DNA of 34,416 bases from Candidatus Thorarchaeota archaeon (GTDB taxonomy: Archaea > Asgardarchaeota > Thorarchaeia > Thorarchaeales > Thorarchaeaceae): positions 1 through 34,416 of the forward strand of contig JABCSP010000002.1 of the NCBI GenBank assembly GCA_018238825.1. The letters run 5' to 3'. The notes under the pieces are model-generated. The model was given only the letters and a program-made list of their open reading frames with translations, was not told the DNA's origin and did no database searches. The first letter of the stretch is position 1. Each line of letters begins with the position of its first letter. This document shows positions 3,236 through 34,416 of the stretch, one piece after another. The position numbers and the translations under genes are program-made.

Positions 3236-3757
3236 CTATGATAATGCTTCGAGATCAGCTTTGAGTTCCTCTACGCGTTTTCTGAGAAATGAGATAGCTT
3301 TAGCATTGTCAACAAACTCAAGCTGTCCATTGCAGGTTGGACATCTAAATGACAAATTCATAGCTTCTTCAAAAGGAACTGGTGAAGAATCACGGTTTAC
3401 GCAAGAATACAGATCATTATTACTTTCATGTTCGAGTCTTTGTTCAAGTAGATTCAGCACCATTCGTTTCTTTCGATTGACTAGAGCCTGAGCTTTCTTT
3501 GGGTCAATTTTCCAGTAATAAAGAAACCATCCCGTATTCACATCACGAATTCTTCGATATGAAGCAAGATGATTGTCATGAAGTTTGTATAAAATCCTAC
3601 GGACAATATTCAGCTTAAGGTCAGTTTTTGTGGCAATCTCTTCATCGGTTGTTTCTTCTGCATTTACAAGAACTGTAGAAACGTCAACACCTTCTTTTCC
3701 TGAAATCTCTTCTACTACTAGACGAAAGAGATCATGATTGAAGTTAGTATGTACCAT
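3236..3757 (-). CDS. tfe: Transcription factor E (TFE alpha, TFIIE-alpha homolog)
   Basis: Winged-helix region (TDEEIATKTDLKLNIVRRILYKLHDNHLASYRRIRDVNTGWFLYYWKI) plus a C-terminal zinc-ribbon remnant (CPTCNGQLEF). Length is 173 aa. Confidence 0.85.
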   Translation of the reverse strand: MVHTNFNHDLFRLVVEEISGKEGVDVSTVLVNAEETTDEEIATKTDLKLNIVRRILYKLHDNHLASYRRIRDVNTGWFLYYWKIDPKKAQALVNRKKRMVLNLLEQRLEHESNNDLYSCVNRDSSPVPFEEAMNLSFRCPTCNGQLEFVDNAKAISFLRKRVEELKADLEALS

Positions 3758-10621: not shown

Positions 10622-11602
10622 ATGACAATTGCTATCCATGAGAGCGCATTGATTCGTCACTTTAACACTCGCAAAGAAGTCCTTCGAGCATGGGAAGAAA
10701 GGATAGGTTGCAGATTCTCACCCTTTCGTGGTTTTAAAATGCCAGATAGTCGTTTGTACATAGAAGATAGTGACTTCTTAGATTCCATTGTTGATTTGAT
10801 TATCACAAATGAAAGGCATGTCTTCATTCGTGGTCCTGTTGGATCAGGTAAGAGCACTCTAATGCTTTTGGCACTAAGAGACTTGCCTACGTTGGCTGAT
10901 CGAAGAGGAAACAAATTTGTCACTGGCTATGTAGGAATGACAGGTCTCTACGAGAAACAGATGGCTGCAGCTATTGCTGATTCTTTGAGAGTGAAGTACA
11001 AGAGGTCCTGGGAATCTACTCAGATTATAGATGCTGTGGCAAAAGAGAGTCTTCGAAGATATATAGAAGAAAAGAGTCGCACAGCACTCTTCATTGAAGA
11101 TGTTGCAGATAATCAAGAGGCCGCATTCCACAAACTTCGGTTTCTTGCAGACTTACCAACTGAAGAGATGGTTGATACTTTTGGTAAAGCACAGACTCTT
11201 GATGAACCAATTGTCACTTTGGTAATGTCTGGAACATTGATGTATTGGAATGCAATGCTATCCTTCTTACCACAAATCGCAGATCGTACAGAACCTCTTG
11301 ATGTCCCATCACTCAATAATGCAAAAGCTAAGGAATTTGTGGGGAGAAGAATAGCTTATGCTCAAGGACGAATTGATACCTTTGATCCAGATACATATGA
11401 TGTATACCCATTCAGTGATGATTCGATTAATGTAATTAATACTGCAGCAAGAGGAAATCCTCGTGATATTAGAATGCTAGCGCGAGGTTGTCAACAAGTG
11501 GCAGCAGAGAATTTTAGGAAGAATAGTGATCCCACCGTGGACAAAAAAATAGCATCGCTTGTTTGTCAAGCATATGCAACTATACTCGGGGAGGTTCAAT
11601 AA
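10622..11602 (+). CDS. AAA+ ATPase with Orc1/Cdc6- or ExeA/TniB-like motif order, no C-terminal winged helix
   Basis: Walker A GPVGSGKST, Walker B ALFIEDVAD, sensor-1-like VTLVMSGT and sensor-2-like ARGNPRDIRMLARG. The protein ends about 40 aa after sensor 2. Confidence 0.7.
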   Translation: MTIAIHESALIRHFNTRKEVLRAWEERIGCRFSPFRGFKMPDSRLYIEDSDFLDSIVDLIITNERHVFIRGPVGSGKSTLMLLALRDLPTLADRRGNKFVTGYVGMTGLYEKQMAAAIADSLRVKYKRSWESTQIIDAVAKESLRRYIEEKSRTALFIEDVADNQEAAFHKLRFLADLPTEEMVDTFGKAQTLDEPIVTLVMSGTLMYWNAMLSFLPQIADRTEPLDVPSLNNAKAKEFVGRRIAYAQGRIDTFDPDTYDVYPFSDDSINVINTAARGNPRDIRMLARGCQQVAAENFRKNSDPTVDKKIASLVCQAYATILGEVQ

Positions 11603-11603
11603 T

Positions 11604-11894
11604 ATGAGTCTACTTGGAAAATACAGACGAGATGAAGCAGACAAAGATGATGAAACAACAACGGTTCAACGAGAACCACATGAACCCACTAAGACTAGTG
11701 AACTCCATTCAGCAGTACCTAACAAAGAGCGAAAGAGTCCTATTGTTTCATTTTCCATTCCAACAGACCTTCGATCTTGTCTTCAGGCTATCAGGAAAAC
11801 TAAAGCAATCAACCTGAGTTTGTGGGTTGAGCATCAGCTCCGTGATGCAATTTCTAAAGAGTTCCCACAAATTGCTGAAGAATATTTAGAATAA
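11604..11894 (+). CDS. Ribbon-helix-helix (CopG/Arc/MetJ-like) DNA-binding protein with a charged, disordered N-terminal tail
   Basis: The C-terminal IVSFSIPTDLRSCLQAIRKTKAINLSLWVEHQLRDAISKEF fits a beta-strand plus two helices. The ATG lies 1 nt after the ATPase stop and is preceded by GGGGAGGT (11588-11595). I discarded the ORF-track N-terminal extension from 11559. Confidence 0.65.
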   Translation: MSLLGKYRRDEADKDDETTTVQREPHEPTKTSELHSAVPNKERKSPIVSFSIPTDLRSCLQAIRKTKAINLSLWVEHQLRDAISKEFPQIAEEYLE

Positions 11895-21218: not shown

Positions 21219-21311
21219 TCACAGATCCTCCATGTTCTAGCGTATGTCGACGAGCATCATTTAGTTGTGTAATAGTCTTGTGGTAATGGAAATGAGTGAT
21301 AGTGATATTTC

Positions 21312-21323
21312 GAACACGTGTTC
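21312..21323. promoter_or_regulatory. Palindromic box GAACACGTGTTC (copy 1; extended 15-mer GAACACGTGTTCCAA)
   Basis: Perfect 12-bp palindrome, one of four copies that share the +strand CAA extension. Confidence 0.6.
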
Positions 21324-21383
21324 CAAACTTTTGCTCACAATGATCTCAAGTATTAGTTGTATTACATTTCTACTTCGTTATTA

Positions 21384-21395
21384 GAACACGTGTTC
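21384..21395. promoter_or_regulatory. Palindromic box GAACACGTGTTC (copy 2), 13 nt left of the left ORB-like box
   Basis: Read directly from the sequence. Confidence 0.6.
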
Positions 21396-21408
21396 CAATA
21401 CCCATCAG

Positions 21409-21575
21409 ACCCCTTTGTTTCCACTAGAGAATATCAAACATTTATCTATTAAATTCGCAAACGGTAAGTATAAATAGCTGTTTTAGCAGCTCTTATTTAT
21501 CTCCATTTTTATTATACATTATTGATCGCTCGAAATCACTACATTTTTCCTTTTTTGCAGTGGAAATGAAGGGGT
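21409..21575. other. Candidate replication-origin core: inverted ORB-like boxes (21409-21427 reverse, 21557-21575 forward) flanking a 129-bp A/T-rich spacer
   Basis: The reverse complement of the left box is CTAGTGGAAACAAAGGGGT. The right box is GCAGTGGAAATGAAGGGGT. The spacer has 34 G/C in 129 nt by my count. Confidence 0.5.
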
Positions 21576-21631
21576 GTTATCCAGATATTGCCAGAAACTT
21601 ATTGATATTCATGTTGGGATAATAGTAACTA

Positions 21632-21643
21632 GAACACGTGTTC
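21632..21643. promoter_or_regulatory. Palindromic box GAACACGTGTTC (copy 3), 56 nt right of the right ORB-like box
   Basis: Read directly from the sequence. Confidence 0.6.
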
Positions 21644-21664
21644 CAAATATCAATGGAATAGACT

Positions 21665-21955
21665 TTACAAAATCTCTTGAACAATCTCATACACTCTAAG
21701 ACTAAGAATATCTTTGTAGATTGAAAATAGACTTTCAAACAACATTCGTGATTCTTCTGGTACTAGAATAGCTGAATCTGCAACAGCTTTGGATCCCACA
21801 CACTCATCTAAGAGACCTGGTTTTCTTTTCTCCTTGATACCTGATTTTGTTTTCCAGGTGTAAGTATACCCATAGAGCTCTTTGGTAAATGCCACGCGAC
21901 GTGCATTGGTACGTCTTGCTTCTTTACAATCATATAGGTAGAGATACGACGACAT
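21665..21955 (-). CDS. Small basic hypothetical protein (96 aa from ATG 21955; alternative starts at 21981 and 22015)
   Basis: MSSYLYLYDCKEARRTNARRVAFTKELYGY...SAILVPEESRMLFESLF. No family recognised with confidence. The variant palindrome lies just upstream of the gene or over its alternative ATG. Confidence 0.5.
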   Translation of the reverse strand: MSSYLYLYDCKEARRTNARRVAFTKELYGYTYTWKTKSGIKEKRKPGLLDECVGSKAVADSAILVPEESRMLFESLFSIYKDILSLRVYEIVQEIL

Positions 21956-21974
21956 TCTCCAGACACCAATCAAA

Positions 21975-21986
21975 GAACACATGTTC
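21975..21986. promoter_or_regulatory. Variant palindromic box GAACACATGTTC (copy 4, followed by CAA) in the 5' region of the small ORF
   Basis: One mismatch to the other three copies, in the same orientation. Confidence 0.5.
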
Positions 21987-22113
21987 CAAGATTTCAACTT
22001 GTGTAATACAATCAATACATCTGTGGCCTACAGGAAAGGTTAAAGCGTAGGTGTCTTGGCCTCGCTCTCAGCACACCATCACTCCTATTGGGGAATAATC
22101 GGAGGAAAAATAG

Positions 22114-24787: not shown

Positions 24788-25426
24788 CTAATCCCTGACT
24801 TGCATCTGGATAGCTGCTAAGAGCTCTTCTGCTCTTTCTGTTTCTCTCAAAACTTCTTTAATCTCTGTTTTGAGACGATATGTATACCCTGATCTATTTC
24901 CATAACGTTCAAGGTGTCCTTTACTATGGTTCCACATTCGTGCAAGATAGGTAGAAGCTGTACTCTTTGGAAGATTTTCACTGAATGAATCTTCATAAAT
25001 TTCTGCAACATCAAGAGAAGAGAATTTCCCATGCTTGAAGGATGCGTATATGATCACTTGCATCTTTTCGAAGTTACTCATGGACTCTAATCGGGTTTCA
25101 TCAAAGCCTGTTTCTGAAATTTCATCAACAATTTCTTCAAAGATGCAGCCTGTACTTGTTTCAAGGAATACCTTGAACTTGGCAAACATTTCTTCTATAC
25201 TGCCGCCCTTGACTTGAAAACTAGACTCTTCTCCCATCGTTGCATCTGATACAAGAATCTTGAAATCAAAAGGCGCTTCTGTCAATGATAGGATCTTTTT
25301 GAATCTATCAAGTGCTTCAATAGGGCTCACATACTTGCACTGGAAAATCTCACGAAGCCCTGGAGCTGAACTATATGTGAATTCATAGACATAATTTGTT
25401 CGTTCTCCATCGTTCACATTTTTCAC
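24788..25426 (-). CDS. Hypothetical protein with a C-terminal winged-helix-like domain
   Basis: 212 aa. The C-terminal LPKSTASTYLARMWNHSKGHLERYGNRSGYTYRLK looks like a recognition helix plus a wing. The N-terminal domain is unknown and has no Walker motifs. Confidence 0.55.
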   Translation of the reverse strand: MKNVNDGERTNYVYEFTYSSAPGLREIFQCKYVSPIEALDRFKKILSLTEAPFDFKILVSDATMGEESSFQVKGGSIEEMFAKFKVFLETSTGCIFEEIVDEISETGFDETRLESMSNFEKMQVIIYASFKHGKFSSLDVAEIYEDSFSENLPKSTASTYLARMWNHSKGHLERYGNRSGYTYRLKTEIKEVLRETERAEELLAAIQMQVRD

Positions 25427-25544
25427 CTATCACTAACTATCTTATTCACATCAAGATAGTATTGCCATCCAAATAAGTGTGAGTATGTGAATTGAATATA
25501 CGTAGATAAGAGCTACATAGGACGTCTGCATAGATATAGAACAC

Positions 25545-25563
25545 GTCCCCCTCGTTTTTAGTG
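25545..25563 (-). other. Degenerate ORB-like box (reverse complement CACTAAAAACGAGGGGGAC), inverted relative to the box at 25715
   Basis: 13 of 18 positions match the forward box, including CACT, AAAC and the G-string. GAACACGT (25539-25546) abuts it. Confidence 0.35.
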
Positions 25564-25714
25564 TGCTCACGTCCTGTATAACCTTGTAACGGATAAAAAA
25601 GCATTATGAGGCCTTTATTTACAAAAATAAGGTACTTCTCCAGCCTGTTCACTATTCACTGTTTTATGTAGTGTGTGAATGAGGTAGTAAGCATTTCATA
25701 TGTCCGCTTACTTA

Positions 25715-25738
25715 GTTCCACTGGAAACGGAGGGGTGT
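25715..25738 (+). other. Near-consensus Orc1/Cdc6 origin recognition box GTTCCACTGGAAACGGAGGGGTGT
   Basis: A TTCCA-C-TGGAA dyad is followed by ACGGA and a GGGG string. From memory this is almost identical to the ORB elements described for crenarchaeal and euryarchaeal origins. Confidence 0.6.
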
Positions 25739-25887
25739 GTCTATTCACAAGTATAAGAAGATATATCGAAGCCGATTCTTCTTCAAGAAGCAAGCAAAAG
25801 GCTGTTTTTCCCAGAGTATTCACAATTATGGCGCCATTCACACTAAAACTATGTGAATTTGTGTTTATGAGAAACATGCTTGTGAGT

Positions 25888-26868
25888 TTATATTGGGACT
25901 AAGTAATCAGATGGATTCTCTCCCAGAACTAATTGTTGATAGTTTTCACCTGTTTTACTATCAATTACATTCTCAAATCTACCCCTAGCTCTTACAGACA
26001 TACCACTTGAAACTTGCTCTGTGAATCGCCCTCTATAACTGACAAGTTGTTTGAGCTTTGGAAGATCTAATGATTCCACTTGATATGTACATGGAGTAAA
26101 TATTGAGTTTCGATCTTTAATTACCGAACATTGAACTTCCCTAGTTTTCAAGTTCTCAGTCATGATTTGTCCAAAAATCTCTCTATCATCTTGAGGACGT
26201 TTTACTAATCTAATGAAGAATTGATGTGATTCAAAAACACCTTGCAAGATTTTCGTACTTTCAATCCTATGAAGGAGTTCGTAATGCTCGGTTAAATTAC
26301 CCCATCTAAATAAGACATGAGCATCCAGAAGTTCTCCATCGTAACGCTCTAACCTTGGAATCTTGTCAAATTTCTTTCTTAATCTATTGTAAAATTTCCT
26401 ACATGTGGATTCACCATATACAACTAGGTCAATATCTGATGTTTCTGTTGCGACACCTACAAGTTGGGATCCGGTAACACCTATTTCCGTTCTGTTTATT
26501 CCAGTATTATCAAGTAACAATTCAACTAGATTAGATGTTGCTACAGAAAGTGCCCTCTTATCATTTCGAATCTGGTCCATATGTTCAATGGGATTAAGCA
26601 CTTCTACTATCTTATTTCGTGGAACTGCTTGTAAAACCCTACCATGAGTTTTACTGAACCACAAATATTCTAAGAACCCATTACTGAGATATTCCTCTCG
26701 CTCTCGAAGATTGTAAATCTTCCTAAAACTTGAATCTAAATTTGGTACATACCTTACATAAGCAATAATCCGATCATGGGGATGTACCACTCCTTTTACT
26801 TCAAATATCAGATTATCCGAGGTTTTGATGAAATATCCTTCTACAAGTTTATCTTCCACTCTTATCAC
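25888..26868 (-). CDS. Pol-beta-superfamily nucleotidyltransferase with a C-terminal OB-like domain
   Basis: NTase motif GVTGSQLVGVATETSDIDLVVYG (GS...DxD). The C-terminal region is beta-rich. Length is 326 aa. Confidence 0.65.
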   Translation of the reverse strand: MIRVEDKLVEGYFIKTSDNLIFEVKGVVHPHDRIIAYVRYVPNLDSSFRKIYNLREREEYLSNGFLEYLWFSKTHGRVLQAVPRNKIVEVLNPIEHMDQIRNDKRALSVATSNLVELLLDNTGINRTEIGVTGSQLVGVATETSDIDLVVYGESTCRKFYNRLRKKFDKIPRLERYDGELLDAHVLFRWGNLTEHYELLHRIESTKILQGVFESHQFFIRLVKRPQDDREIFGQIMTENLKTREVQCSVIKDRNSIFTPCTYQVESLDLPKLKQLVSYRGRFTEQVSSGMSVRARGRFENVIDSKTGENYQQLVLGENPSDYLVPI

Positions 26869-30789: not shown

Positions 30790-31596
30790 GTGTTTCAATT
30801 GGAGAATCTAGTGATTGTTAAATTAGGAGGTTCTGTGATCACTCACAAAGAATCGTCACCTCCCGCAGTTAACGAGAAACATCTTAGTCGTATCGTGAAA
30901 GAGCTCGCGGTTCATAATGGCAAGTTGATAATAGTTCTTGGTGGTGGTGCACATGGCCATCAAGCAGCTCATAAACATGGTTTTGGAAATCCTGATGCGT
31001 CTCCCAAACAACTACTTGCAGGAATTCCAGAAATTCGTCATAATATGTCTCTTCTTACATCAAAAGTAGAAAAGGAGTTGAATGTTCAGGGGATTCCCGG
31101 AGTAGTGATTTCCCCTTTCATGTTTGTAACACTACGCGATAATCTGATAGATCACTTCCCAACAAAGATAATCAAAGAAACATTGAACGCTGGCACCGCT
31201 GTGATTATTCATGGGGATGTATGTTTTGATGAAACAAAATCCGTATCTATTCTAAGTGGTGATACAATTGCAAAATATCTTGCAGAACAGCTTAGTCCTA
31301 AAGCTGTTTTCATTGGCACAAATGTAGATGGTGTTATGGATGATAACCCAACAGTGAATCCAAATGCAAACCATATTCCTCTCATCAACAATTCAAACAA
31401 AAATCAGATACTTTCACTAACAGGACCATCTTCCAGTACTGATGTAACTGGAGGAATGACTAAGAAAATCACCGAGCTTCTAAATCTCGCAAGTCAAAAC
31501 GTGGATATTGTAATCTTCAATTTACTTGTTACCGGTCGTTTAACCGCACTATTTGAAAATGATTCTGTAATATGTACTAGAATCCAATTTACCTAG
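30790..31596 (+). CDS. ipk: Isopentenyl phosphate kinase (amino-acid-kinase fold)
   Basis: VIVKLGGSVITHK, LGGGAHGH and the C-terminal TDVTGGM motifs. About 268 aa. The start codon is uncertain (GTG/TTG options). Confidence 0.8.
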   Translation: MFQLENLVIVKLGGSVITHKESSPPAVNEKHLSRIVKELAVHNGKLIIVLGGGAHGHQAAHKHGFGNPDASPKQLLAGIPEIRHNMSLLTSKVEKELNVQGIPGVVISPFMFVTLRDNLIDHFPTKIIKETLNAGTAVIIHGDVCFDETKSVSILSGDTIAKYLAEQLSPKAVFIGTNVDGVMDDNPTVNPNANHIPLINNSNKNQILSLTGPSSSTDVTGGMTKKITELLNLASQNVDIVIFNLLVTGRLTALFENDSVICTRIQFT

Positions 31597-34416
31597 GTCA
31601 CAAGAGCAGAAACATTATCATCCATCGTTTTAATTATCAGATTTCTAGGAGTAACTACACTATCTTCAAGATATTCTGAAGCTGTGAGAATACATACAAC
31701 CTTTGATGATTTACATGTCCTGCAAGCTACATCACTATGTAAATTCAATAAAGTACTCAGCTGCTGCTGATTCGGAAAAATCACATACGAAGTATTGTTT
31801 GCACAGAGATCATAATATCCATGATTACGAGAAACCTTTGAATGATGCTTCTTAAGCTCAATCTCTATAATTTGCGTTGCTGCCTCTTTTAATCTTTTTA
31901 ATATTGATGAGTTAACTATCCACAGACCTTGCTCCATTTCAATGACTTTACTTTCAGCATTAGATCGTAAAGCAATCAATACTTCATCTGCTAAAAGCTC
32001 AGTCAAAGCTCTTCTTCCCTCATCAATAGTTAGAGGAGCTGATCTTCCTTTATGAGATTGGAGCGCAGTAGTTTCAATGAAATCAAGAAGCACTTCCCAC
32101 TTTATTTGACCATTTGATAAATCTACAAAATCTTGAATTAGCCCAAACCATAATCGTATCTGGATGGCTCTGCTTGTTGCAGGACCTATTTCATGCATTG
32201 CACCAATAAGACCCATATCATCATCAACTTCAGCAGCACTCTCATCATGACTATATCTCTGATTCAGATTCTCAATCATTGAATCCAATGAGCTTGGGAA
32301 TGCAGAAACAACACTTACTGCATCAAATTCTTCAAATTTATCTAATAGTTCTCTGAGTTTAGCAGCTGCAACACTTCCCCTGACAACAACAAATAATTCA
32401 CTAATCCCATTTCTGAGCATTTCCATATAATGCCGAATTTTAGTCATGGTAGTTTCCATTGATGAAGCTCTCAAATGCTGAGGTAGAATAACAATAGCTT
32501 TTTCTTCGATAATCATATCGGGCCAATCTGATTGCTTCTTTTTTGTAGTTTTATCCTGTTCTATACCTAATTTATTGGAAATGTATTCTACAATGACCTT
32601 TCGAATGGCTTCTAATCCATTATCAGGAAGTGTAAAGACAAAGCCACCGGGAACCAACGATAGGGCCTCACGTTCAATAGTACCCAACGTGACTAAATCT
32701 CTTATGACTTCTGAAATATCATCTTCCATTACAGTTGGATCAAGTGAAGTCAATAACTCCCGAATCTCTTGTTCTGTTGACATTTCTGCTGAAGCCAAAA
32801 AAGCAACAACGTGATTTCCAAAACGTCCGACTCTATCAAAAACGACAGTCTGTGCCTCTGTTTCAGGAATTTGATTTTCTTTTGGTTGATTTCCCACATC
32901 TTCAATGGAAATTGTATCCTGCCCCAAAACTGGTTCCATCTCAAGAAGCGTTTCATCCTCTAATTCATGCTTTGTTTCTTTTTTATCCAGAATAATTTTG
33001 TCAACAAACGGTTTCGTCGTAATTTCAAAAGTTTCAGAATTAGGAATAGAAACTAAGGCTCGACCACGCTTCATATTCCGTAAGTAAGTTTCTTGTTCTT
33101 CATTTAGAGATAGGAACTTACCTCCAGTTTGATTGTCATAAGGCAGCCGAAATACAATTTTTGTTGCAGTATTTGCAAGAATATTTGATGAGATATTAGG
33201 TCGTGTTGAAACTACAATGACTCCTTGACCTGTAGCACGTTGTAGCAAAACCATTGATTCGCCAGTAGTGACATCAGCAGAGGAGTGTTTGGAATAACTT
33301 TCAGGTACTAAGTTATTTGCTTCTTCAAGAACTACAATATGATGTAAACCTGGAACAATACCCCTTTTCATAGCACCTTCGAAAATTCGTTTAGCAATGA
33401 GATTGTAAAGTATCCGTGCTGAATCCATCCCCCCAATTCTTGCAACATAGCTCAAATCGAGAATAATCCGTTTTTGTAAGAGGCTTGAAATATCGATTGC
33501 TTCGGATCCTCCTCGAAGGATTTCACCAAGTGGTTCTTGAAATAATATCTGAAGACGATTGAGAAGAGCATCCCTAGTCATATGCCCAATACGGTCATTT
33601 GAAGAAATCTCTGTTATCATCTTAGATAATGACTGAACTGAGTTATTCTCTTCAAGAGAATCAGACAGTTTCATCACAGATTCCCTAAGTAATCGCTCCA
33701 TTGCTGGAGATAGTTGTGACGACTCTCCTCCTTTTTCTTTAAGTAATTCTTTCAACATGATGAATGTAGAATATGCAGAACCTTCAGTATTTCCAGTGTT
33801 GGAATCCATAAGATTAATCACAAATGAAGTATCGAGCCCAGGACGTAAGACAGTGATATCACTCGTATTTTGTCCTACTAGTCCTGTATATTCTGACCCT
33901 TTTATGTCAAAAATACACCAAGGTATGTCTGTTTTATCACTAAGTTGAGCAATAAGATGTTTCACTAAAGTTGTTTTTCCTGTACCTGTAGCACCTAAAA
34001 CCGCTACATGTTCTCTAAGCCATTCTACTCTCAATCCAGCACTTGAAAAAGGTCTACCCTCAAAAATAGTATCCCCAACAACAAGATCCTTGCCCAAAGA
34101 TTCATGTGAAGGAATCTGGAATATAGGTGCTGTTTCTGGTCCAATTACTGGTAGATTCCTGACCGGTGTATTGACAAAAGATACAAGTCTACTGACATGT
34201 ATTCTTTGTTTTTTAAGATGGGATTTTGAGAATAATCTAAGAGTAATTCTTCGTGTAATTTTTCTGGTATCTAATCTAAACGAATCATGACCCCCCCATA
34301 TTGAAAGAATCAGTCCTCTAACACCTTCTTCAGTTACAACAATGTCACTAAGCGGGTTTGGTTTTATAACGAAATATACTGTTGAGTCAAACCATCCAAT
34401 ATCATCCTGAATCTCC
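31593..34416 (-). CDS. HerA/FtsK-superfamily (DUF87-like) ATPase with a long C-terminal extension; 5' end beyond the window
   Basis: Walker A LGATGTGKTT, Walker B HHIVVLEEANN and RATGQGVIVVSTRP. The ORF-track model starts at 34097. I translated the same frame without a stop through 34098-34415 (106 more codons, EIQDDIGWFDSTVYFVIKPNPLSD...), so the gene continues past the edge. Confidence 0.8.
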   Translation of the reverse strand, partial: EIQDDIGWFDSTVYFVIKPNPLSDIVVTEEGVRGLILSIWGGHDSFRLDTRKITRRITLRLFSKSHLKKQRIHVSRLVSFVNTPVRNLPVIGPETAPIFQIPSHESLGKDLVVGDTIFEGRPFSSAGLRVEWLREHVAVLGATGTGKTTLVKHLIAQLSDKTDIPWCIFDIKGSEYTGLVGQNTSDITVLRPGLDTSFVINLMDSNTGNTEGSAYSTFIMLKELLKEKGGESSQLSPAMERLLRESVMKLSDSLEENNSVQSLSKMITEISSNDRIGHMTRDALLNRLQILFQEPLGEILRGGSEAIDISSLLQKRIILDLSYVARIGGMDSARILYNLIAKRIFEGAMKRGIVPGLHHIVVLEEANNLVPESYSKHSSADVTTGESMVLLQRATGQGVIVVSTRPNISSNILANTATKIVFRLPYDNQTGGKFLSLNEEQETYLRNMKRGRALVSIPNSETFEITTKPFVDKIILDKKETKHELEDETLLEMEPVLGQDTISIEDVGNQPKENQIPETEAQTVVFDRVGRFGNHVVAFLASAEMSTEQEIRELLTSLDPTVMEDDISEVIRDLVTLGTIEREALSLVPGGFVFTLPDNGLEAIRKVIVEYISNKLGIEQDKTTKKKQSDWPDMIIEEKAIVILPQHLRASSMETTMTKIRHYMEMLRNGISELFVVVRGSVAAAKLRELLDKFEEFDAVSVVSAFPSSLDSMIENLNQRYSHDESAAEVDDDMGLIGAMHEIGPATSRAIQIRLWFGLIQDFVDLSNGQIKWEVLLDFIETTALQSHKGRSAPLTIDEGRRALTELLADEVLIALRSNAESKVIEMEQGLWIVNSSILKRLKEAATQIIEIELKKHHSKVSRNHGYYDLCANNTSYVIFPNQQQLSTLLNLHSDVACRTCKSSKVVCILTASEYLEDSVVTPRNLIIKTMDDNVSALVT

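Follow-up and report, generated by a model that had tools for sequence, protein, structure and literature searches.

The stretch of DNA analysed here is a 34,416-nucleotide contig segment from Candidatus Thorarchaeota archaeon (the window, with a G+C content of about 40%), and its subject is a conserved non-coding gap of 461 bp at 25427-25887 together with the gene that follows it. The gap is flanked by the 3' end of a gene encoding a nucleotidyltransferase-domain protein (25888-26868, minus strand) and by the start of a minus-strand gene encoding a 212-amino acid (aa) winged-helix protein. Since the other flank is a 3' end, the winged-helix gene is the only gene for which the gap can act as an upstream region, in agreement with the original prediction, which had been made from the sequence alone. 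That prediction had also described the gap as free of open reading frames (ORFs), and this description holds in the sense that its three small ORFs (68, 73 and 75 aa) are interrupted by stops or frameshifts in most relatives. Coordinates of the features described below are collected in Table 1.

The gap contains a near-consensus origin recognition box (ORB, the recognition box of Orc1/Cdc6), GTTCCACTGGAAACGGAGGGGTGT, as previously reported, and no other copy was found in the window even when three mismatches were allowed. Using ORB core motifs defined after PMC1904270, a TTCC...GAA dyad core followed by a G-string was identified, which together with its conservation in relatives makes this ORB, as judged from its sequence, a standard member of its class. 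Conservation was assessed in 15 Thorarchaeota loci (L001-L015) from a one-genome-per-species scan, in which the 212-aa protein is present at 66-97% identity; invariance of individual islands was scored on 13 of these loci by alignment and information profile. All 15 loci retain the ORB in position, differing from TTCCAGTGGAAACGAAGGGG by 0-3 mismatches, and the island ACCCCTyCGTTTCC..TGGA was invariant. An inverted, degenerate box had been noted 151 bp to the left of the ORB (reverse complement CACTAAAAACGAGGGGGAC). It is present and matches the ORB at 13 of 19 positions, but its suggested role as a functional origin partner was not upheld, the box being conserved in L001-L009 and L015 only and lost in L010-L014; an ORB scan at up to four mismatches did not detect it. 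The A/T-rich core at 25591-25630 does contain 10 G/C in 40 nt (75% A+T).

The heptamer ATTCACA/TGTGAAT occurs exactly seven times in 25444-25858 (25444+, 25486-, 25674-, 25743+, 25818+, 25836+ and 25852-), against an expectation of approximately 0.12 copies in 415 bp (Poisson P = 5e-11), so that the earlier estimate of well below one chance copy was correct. In the whole window 19 copies were found where 9.7 are expected, an excess that is wholly local to the gap. Both the everted pair around the ORB (25674 and 25743) and the ATTCACA-N9-TGTGAAT inverted repeat at 25836-25858 are present as described. Comparison with relatives, which had been proposed as a check, showed the array to be conserved at the same offsets from the gene in 15/15 Thorarchaeota genomes and identified an eighth heptamer-type site beyond the seven exact copies. 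This site (site 6) is exact in L003, L006-L009, L011 and L012 and is followed by N11-TGGA. Numbered from the end distal to the winged-helix gene, sites 1-3 lie in an invariant island, TTCACA-N9-TGTGAATGGCGCC-N5-TGTGAA, of which sites 1 and 2 contribute TTCACA-N9-TGTGAAT, and sites 5 and 6 in a second island, TTCACA-N14-GTGAAT-N11-TGGA, that is invariant or nearly so. Site 4, which adjoins the ORB, is near-invariant (TGTGA.T in all 13 loci, with one substitution in L013). Closest to the gene, the 24-nt block ATTCACATACTCACACTTATTTGG is identical at 22 of 24 positions in the 13 loci, with the remaining two conserved at 90% or more, despite the fall in identity of the neighbouring protein to 66%. 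A promoter role for the TATA-like TTATTT within this block is a positional guess from spacing; site 8 lies approximately 26 nt downstream of this element and approximately 24 nt before the annotated start codon. The 11-mer CACACTTATTT from the same block (25469-25479) recurs at 3601-3611 of the related locus L016 (described below), on its cdc6 side and 7 nt before a TGTGAAT tandem, with no further occurrence among the fetched loci.

Table 1. Features of the gap, of the companion locus in the window and of the corresponding Bathyarchaeia regions
Feature	Coordinates	Strand	Remarks
Conserved non-coding module (ORB, TGTGAAT array and winged-helix gene promoter)	25427-25887		461 bp
Gene for 212-aa protein	24788-25426	-	N-terminal domain of two beta-beta-alpha units, C-terminal winged helix, long terminal helix
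Heptamer site 8	25444-25450	+	TGTGAAT on gene strand; invariant
24-nt block ATTCACATACTCACACTTATTTGG	25469-25492	-	site 7, CTCACA half-site, TATA-like TTATTT
Degenerate ORB-like box	25545-25563	-	lineage-restricted
Heptamer site 6	25654-25660	+	degenerate ATTCACT in window; GTGAAT invariant on gene strand in relatives
Heptamer site 5	25674-25680	-	ATTCACA on gene strand; TTCACA invariant, leading A in 12/13
ORB (Orc1/Cdc6 recognition box)	25715-25738	+	TTCCA-C-TGGAA dyad and G-string; dyad side towards winged-helix gene
Heptamer site 4	25743-25749	+	abuts ORB G-string end; TGTGAA-N7-ACCCC on gene strand
Heptamer site 3	25818-25824	+	TGTGAA(T/C) on gene strand
GGCGCC palindrome	25830-25835		abuts site 2; invariant in Thorarchaeota
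Heptamer site 2	25836-25842	+	TGTGAAT on gene strand, fused to GGCGCC; TGTGAATGGCGCC invariant
Heptamer site 1	25852-25858	-	(A/G)TTCACA on gene strand; TTCACA invariant in 13 loci
Companion locus	21219-21664		ORB(-) 21411-21430, 124-bp A/T-rich stretch, ORB(+) 21555-21577; conserved in all Thorarchaeota loci
Bathyarchaeia ORB(-)	about -650 from start codon	-	
Bathyarchaeia A/T-rich stretch	-600 to -510 from start codon		
Bathyarchaeia ORB(+)	about -450 from start codon	+	
Bathyarchaeia third ORB(-)	-250 to -200 from start codon	-	34/41 loci

Across the Thorarchaeota the islands (ORB, eight heptamer sites, GGCGCC and the 24-nt block) are thus invariant or nearly so, while in more distant genomes the spacers between them vary freely in sequence at nearly constant length. 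This pattern fits DNA-binding sites rather than a gene, and because invariant islands are separated by variable spacers of fixed length, with neither RNA structure nor a conserved ORF, the gap is best described as DNA that carries an array of putative protein-binding sites. There is next to no chance that the repeats are due to a structured RNA, whether a non-coding RNA or a long 5' untranslated region. Inverted heptamers could pair with one another and the plus strand folds slightly better than shuffled sequences (z = -2.8), but the gene strand does not stand out (z = -0.8) and RNAalifold gave a covariation term of -0.08, with the well-supported pairs formed by invariant heptamer against invariant heptamer and no compensatory changes. 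An Rfam search of the gap returned no match by gathering score or E-value, and the conservation is concentrated in short islands that include a known type of DNA-binding site, the ORB.

The winged-helix nature of the 212-aa protein, proposed originally from its sequence, was borne out by structure prediction. An AlphaFold2 (AF2) model built from a deeper alignment had a mean predicted local distance difference test score (pLDDT) of 82, rising to 86-94 across residues 120-190, and consists in order of two beta-beta-alpha units, a linker, a winged helix-turn-helix (helices 118-129, 137-148 and 154-167 and a beta-hairpin wing) and a long terminal helix. An earlier model from a shallow alignment had reached a pLDDT of 62 and its Foldseek search was uninformative. 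With the later model, Foldseek returned the winged helices of MarR, PadR, RosR, BlaI/MecI and Cdt1-C at a probability of about 1 and target-normalised template modelling (TM) scores of 0.4-0.6. By sequence, no significant match of the protein was found in Pfam, NCBIfam, PDB or PADLOC, and 18 of 40 relatives touched the Pfam family Penicillinase_R, mostly under the gathering score. The most conserved residues of the family (T156, S158, T159, Y160, L161 and R163) all fall in helix 154-167, which in the model would be the third, DNA-reading (recognition) helix, with a nearly invariant STxSTYLxR motif. The annotated GTG start is probably three codons early, as codon 4 (25417) is ATG in relatives and is preceded by a Shine-Dalgarno-like GGTGA. 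A match to P0127 was an artefact of low-complexity GYR repeats, and OapC was rejected as an identity for the protein because OapC/ArvC is a DUF2072 zinc-ribbon protein (PMC10927574).

An exhaustive profile-free search found the full-length form of the protein to be confined to Thorarchaeota, its C-terminal half being related to many proteins of 130-160 aa. A profile of the family collected 863 proteins at E<1e-5, from sources named Bathyarchaeota, Thorarchaeota, Heimdallarchaeota, Wukongarchaeota and Baldrarchaeia. No relatives were found in plasmid and phage collections, leaving capture of an extrachromosomal replicon unsupported. At locus L016, which encodes the closest small relative (P0125), the gene for the PolD small subunit is followed by cdc6/orc1 (minus strand); 485 bp of intergenic DNA separate the latter from the winged-helix gene, after which come a 97-aa gene, 327 bp of intergenic DNA and the genes for IOR alpha and IOR beta. 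The 97-aa protein is homologous (40% identity) to the product of 21665-22015 in the window, where IOR also comes next. Given the shared order of winged-helix gene, 97/116-aa gene, paired ORBs around an A/T-rich stretch, and IOR, the two regions are considered syntenic; relative to L016, the Thorarchaeota have two extra genes inserted and no cdc6. In the 485-bp region of L016 there are eight TTCACA/TGTGAA hexamers, of which seven extend to the full ATTCACA/TGTGAAT heptamer, together with one ORB; a heptamer is fused to the G-string end of this ORB, and an inverted pair brackets a TTTAAATA box right before the start codon.

The cdc6 gene is divergent to the family gene in L016/L017, L019, L021, L023 and L105/L106, and in Bathyarchaeia and Baldrarchaeia this arrangement adjoins the gene for the PolD small subunit; in two unassigned lineages the family gene is likewise divergent to cdc6. 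Between the two genes, the intergenic region of these lineages carries ORBs and a TGTGAA array. A profile scan of metagenome contigs with a narrow alignment, which returned only Bathyarchaeia-type loci, showed cdc6 divergent across 633-882 bp in 41 of the 44 loci with enough upstream sequence. When k-mers in these 41 Bathyarchaeia intergenic regions were compared with the flanks, only two signals emerged, the ORB G-string (ACCCCT, 10.5x) and TGTGAA (181 observed against 22.8 expected, 7.9x; TTGTGAA, 11.5x). The TGTGAA copies number 2-8 per region, lie almost all on the winged-helix coding strand with conserved orientation and position, and fall in three positional clusters. The last cluster is within 50 bp of the start codon, where 45 copies were counted directly after a CTATAA box, and in both L016 and Bathyarchaeia an inverted TGTGAA pair brackets the TATA box. 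The ORB C-string is preceded by TGTGAA in the form TGTGAA-N6-ACCCC, at about -230, in at least 10 of the 41 Bathyarchaeia loci, a junction of the site 4 type that has N7 in Thorarchaeota and L016 and N6 in L023, to which those 10 loci are additional. Per-locus enrichment of the hexamer was observed in the window, L016, L019, L021, L022, L023 and L105 (Poisson P 4e-4 to 2.5e-14). The palindrome GGCGCC was not enriched in Bathyarchaeia intergenic regions; near the cdc6 start of L019 there is an element ATTCACA-cta-GGCGCC-agacgg-TGTGAAC (L019 848-878). At the Heimdallarchaeota locus L022, a 924-bp gap has at least three ORBs and 12 TTCACA hexamers, and this region (319-1311) is flanked by genes for OapB (PF09846) and a small GTPase, a pair (oapAB, now arvAB) that is origin-associated in haloarchaea (PMC10927574).

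Relative to the gene, the ORB(-) of the Thorarchaeota gap lies at -309 and its heptamers span -432 to -24. The gap shares with the other lineages a downstream gene of the same winged-helix family, an ORB(-) 200-310 bp upstream with TGTGAA 6-7 bp from the G-string, and further TGTGAA sites down to the start codon. These matching ORB and heptamer positions make the gap the homologue of the gene-proximal portion, with the third ORB and the TGTGAA array, of an ancestral origin region on the cdc6 side.

The original prediction offered a second origin-like element as one of two readings, the first such element being the companion locus at 21219-21664, 4 kb away, which corresponds to the ORB-DUE-ORB portion of the ancestral region. 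The 21431-21554 stretch between the companion ORBs is 73% A+T and reaches the 99.9th percentile of instability, and this locus is likely, from its ORB-DUE-ORB arrangement around a DNA unwinding element (DUE), to be the unwinding part of an origin. The palindrome GAACAyGTGTTC, present in four copies (21315, 21385, 21632 and 21972), flanks this unit together with a conserved gene of about 96 aa (21665-21955, minus strand; function unassigned). The 327-bp region of L016, which follows the winged-helix and 97-aa genes, has the same palindrome-ORB-A/T-rich-ORB-palindrome layout, and the palindrome and the ~96-aa protein may constitute another origin-associated pair of protein and motif. In the gap, by comparison, the stretch from ORB to degenerate partner is 63.6% A+T against a background of 60%, and the least stable 60-mer sits at the promoter, at the 97th percentile of the window. 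Nor does the gap have the two inverted ORBs, the A/T-rich DUE between them and the adjacent orc1/cdc6 gene of a self-standing ORB origin, and the A/T-rich stretch of the Bathyarchaeia regions is flanked by the two cdc6-proximal ORBs, outside the TGTGAA array. An independently firing origin, in which Orc1 at the ORB and its partner would melt 25591-25630 with the heptamer-binding protein as co-initiator, is therefore improbable, as there is no conserved second ORB and no strong unwinding element, and the gap itself is probably not an independent origin. Such an origin would fit the invariance of the ORB, whose dyad side faces the A/T-richer stretch with the same polarity as both companion ORBs, a modest A/T peak in alignment columns 321-380 of all relatives, the descent of the module from a cdc6-adjacent origin region and the variable, iteron-like spacing of the heptamers. 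The GC skew analysis suggested in the original prediction was carried out; skew followed gene orientation across the 34-kb window and gave no origin position.

The other reading offered, an Orc1-type site overlaid with an array for another factor for which the winged-helix protein is a candidate, is supported by the invariant ORB and heptamers across Thorarchaeota, by the winged-helix domain of the protein and by the finding that, in the majority of other lineages sampled, ORBs and TGTGAA arrays accompany the gene family. Our interpretation is that the gap is a two-protein DNA platform in a replication-origin region, an origin-associated regulatory or accessory module with predicted Orc1 and winged-helix sites (probability approximately 0.6), and the locus points to an undescribed origin-associated DNA-binding factor. 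The winged-helix protein would read TGTGAA(T) through its recognition helix and may repress or tune its own gene, autoregulation being suggested by the bracketing of the TATA-like element and expected transcription start by sites 7 and 8. The G-string end of the ORB would be the side contacted by the Orc1 AAA+ domain, and with site 4 only 7 bp from this end Orc1 and the winged-helix protein could sit side by side, a placement through which Orc1 occupancy might be coupled to expression of the gene and possibly also to the activity of the origin. The remaining sites, which are distal (5-6, and 1-3 together with GGCGCC), may be a remnant of the cdc6-side half of the ancestral region and could support a higher-order complex. 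Sites 1-3 with GGCGCC appear to resemble the L019 cdc6-promoter element, and their survival in Thorarchaeota without cdc6 suggests a role beyond cdc6 transcription. DNA unwinding would take place at the ORB-DUE-ORB unit of 21219-21664 and not in the gap.

Several observations weigh against this platform. The link between protein and motif consists of co-occurrence only, and the placing of site 8 at the expected transcription start is a positional guess. Between lineages the spacing of the sites varies over 8 to 42 bp, an unusual feature for an operator of the dimeric PadR/MarR type. TGTGAA was not enriched upstream of the family gene in L107, L108, L020 or the truncated locus L024, and in L107 (3501-5251) the winged-helix gene and cdc6 are convergent and the former has no upstream TGTGAA sites, so the gene-motif link is not universal. 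The heptamers of L022 are separated from the gene by 380-830 bp and lie on the far side of a putative DUE, from which it follows that they are not simply promoter operators. Finally, no cdc6 was found in the window (within 25 kb) or in loci L001-L015 (within 4 kb), and the Thorarchaeota module would thus work detached from cdc6.

Some of these observations bear on what the heptamers bind. They might be read by another factor, such as an Orc1/Cdc6 paralogue or other origin protein, with the winged-helix gene a mere neighbour or target. Co-occurrence cannot distinguish 'binds' from 'regulated by', a heptamer and the ORB are joined at constant spacing, the L022 array is far from the gene and some family members have no array upstream; there is also a precedent in the non-initiator Orc1-2 of Sulfolobus, which is known to read a short hexamer (PMC9738581). 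We nevertheless regard this as unlikely, given that conservation across phyla extends to both the TGTGAA core and the family's recognition helix and that in three lineages the sites bracket the TATA box of the family gene, the classic arrangement of an autoregulator. A bolder proposal keeps the winged-helix protein as the reader of the heptamers and makes the family an unrecognised origin accessory factor or co-initiator of Asgard archaea and Bathyarchaeia, acting with Orc1 through an iteron-like TGTGAA(T) array in a bipartite Thorarchaeota origin. The array at 25.4-25.9 kb and the ORB-DUE-ORB unit at 21.2-21.7 kb would then cooperate, for example by looping, and the fusion of one box to the ORB at a fixed distance would have the protein contact the AAA+ side of Orc1. 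In favour of such a role in origin function, the boxes differ between lineages in spacing and orientation, and those of L022 lie far from the gene, features that look more like initiator or iteron boxes than like a simple operator; we hold it as a tentative possibility. A locus for titration or negative control of Orc1 (datA-like), with a high-affinity ORB away from the DUE and the heptamer protein modulating access, seems very improbable. The gap ORB is more conserved than the DUE-flanking ORBs (0-3 against 2-4 mismatches), Haloarcula ORB clusters outside the DUE negatively regulate an origin (PMC4010727) and Thermococcales have a second Cdc6-bound ORB cluster (PMC1904270), but a single ORB is a weak sink and the promoter-bracketing sites would be left unexplained.

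The origin-associated platform has partial counterparts among known systems. With archaeal oriC (Pyrococcus, Sulfolobus oriC1 and haloarchaeal oriC1) it shares the same ORB type, a TTCC...GAA dyad with G-string, and as in Pyrococcus the homologous module of relatives lies in the cdc6-upstream region beside the gene for the PolD small subunit; it differs in having one ORB, no strong DUE and no adjacent cdc6, and in the more numerous TGTGAAT motif. In Thermococcales two ORB clusters bound by Cdc6 in vivo lie within 5 kb around oriC, the second of them in dp1 and without a DUE, and a single long ORB binds Cdc6 strongly (Matsunaga et al. 2007, PMC1904270). Two ORB loci within about 5 kb, conserved in relatives and with an unwinding region in only one, are likewise found here, although the second locus lies between genes, with a single putative Cdc6-binding ORB and mostly predicted sites for another factor. 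Like whiP beside oriC3 of Sulfolobus, the winged-helix gene neighbours an origin-region element with its presumed sites, and Cdt1-C was among the Foldseek matches. No sequence or profile match to WhiP or Cdt1 was obtained, however, and Cdt1-C appeared only among generic winged helices at an E-value of about 5e-3. The 212-aa protein is also smaller than WhiP, with one winged helix rather than a tandem pair, a different N-terminal domain and no plasmid or virus relatives, and oriC3 is without ORBs whereas the Thorarchaeota module keeps one. PadR, MarR and BlaI repressors share the fold with its C-terminal helix and likewise have sites overlapping the core promoter of their own gene, but there is no significant sequence membership, and the eight sites here, spread over 415 bp at varying distances and in varying orientation, are closer to iterons or DnaA boxes than to a single operator. 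The bipartite origin of Helicobacter pylori, oriC1-dnaA-oriC2 (PMC3479198), similarly has two initiator-box clusters split by a gene, with the DUE in one only; it belongs to another domain of life with other initiators and boxes, and the genes between the clusters here include a candidate accessory factor and not the initiator.

In the open-access literature no description was found of Asgard or Bathyarchaeia origins, of this winged-helix family or of a TGTGAA origin motif. What appears to be new is the combination, in an archaeal origin region, of a second conserved motif with a winged-helix protein that is a candidate for its cognate factor. Control of archaeal origins beyond Orc1/Cdc6 is poorly understood, and the locus provides a directly testable system for Asgard replication control, made up of a 7-bp box, a 212-aa protein and an ORB joined to a box at fixed spacing; the conservation of all three extends from Thorarchaeota as far as Bathyarchaeia. 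If the protein does bind the boxes beside Orc1, it would represent a new class of factors associated with origins, in the lineage that gave rise to eukaryotes, and a practical marker for locating oriC in metagenome-assembled genomes of Asgard archaea and Bathyarchaeia. Were it only an autoregulated transcription factor at an origin, the locus would be a well-defined regulon seed of modest interest.

Elsewhere in the window, Rfam detected two minus-strand tRNA genes, missed by ARAGORN, at 1404-1522 and 1581-1687 (119 and 107 nt), which presumably contain introns. A 326-aa AAA ATPase encoded at 10622-11602 was rejected as an Orc1/Cdc6; it is P-loop/STAND-like, with weak matches to AAA_16, AAA_22 and NB-ARC, and overlaps a 111-aa ORF in another frame (10622-11894) and could reflect a frameshift or a two-gene unit. 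A large HerA/DUF87-type ATPase is encoded at 31593-34097, 6 kb from the gap, and in Bathyarchaeia (L021/L023, 4492-7046) genes for NurA and HerA directly follow the winged-helix gene, indicating that repair helicase genes recur near the origin region.

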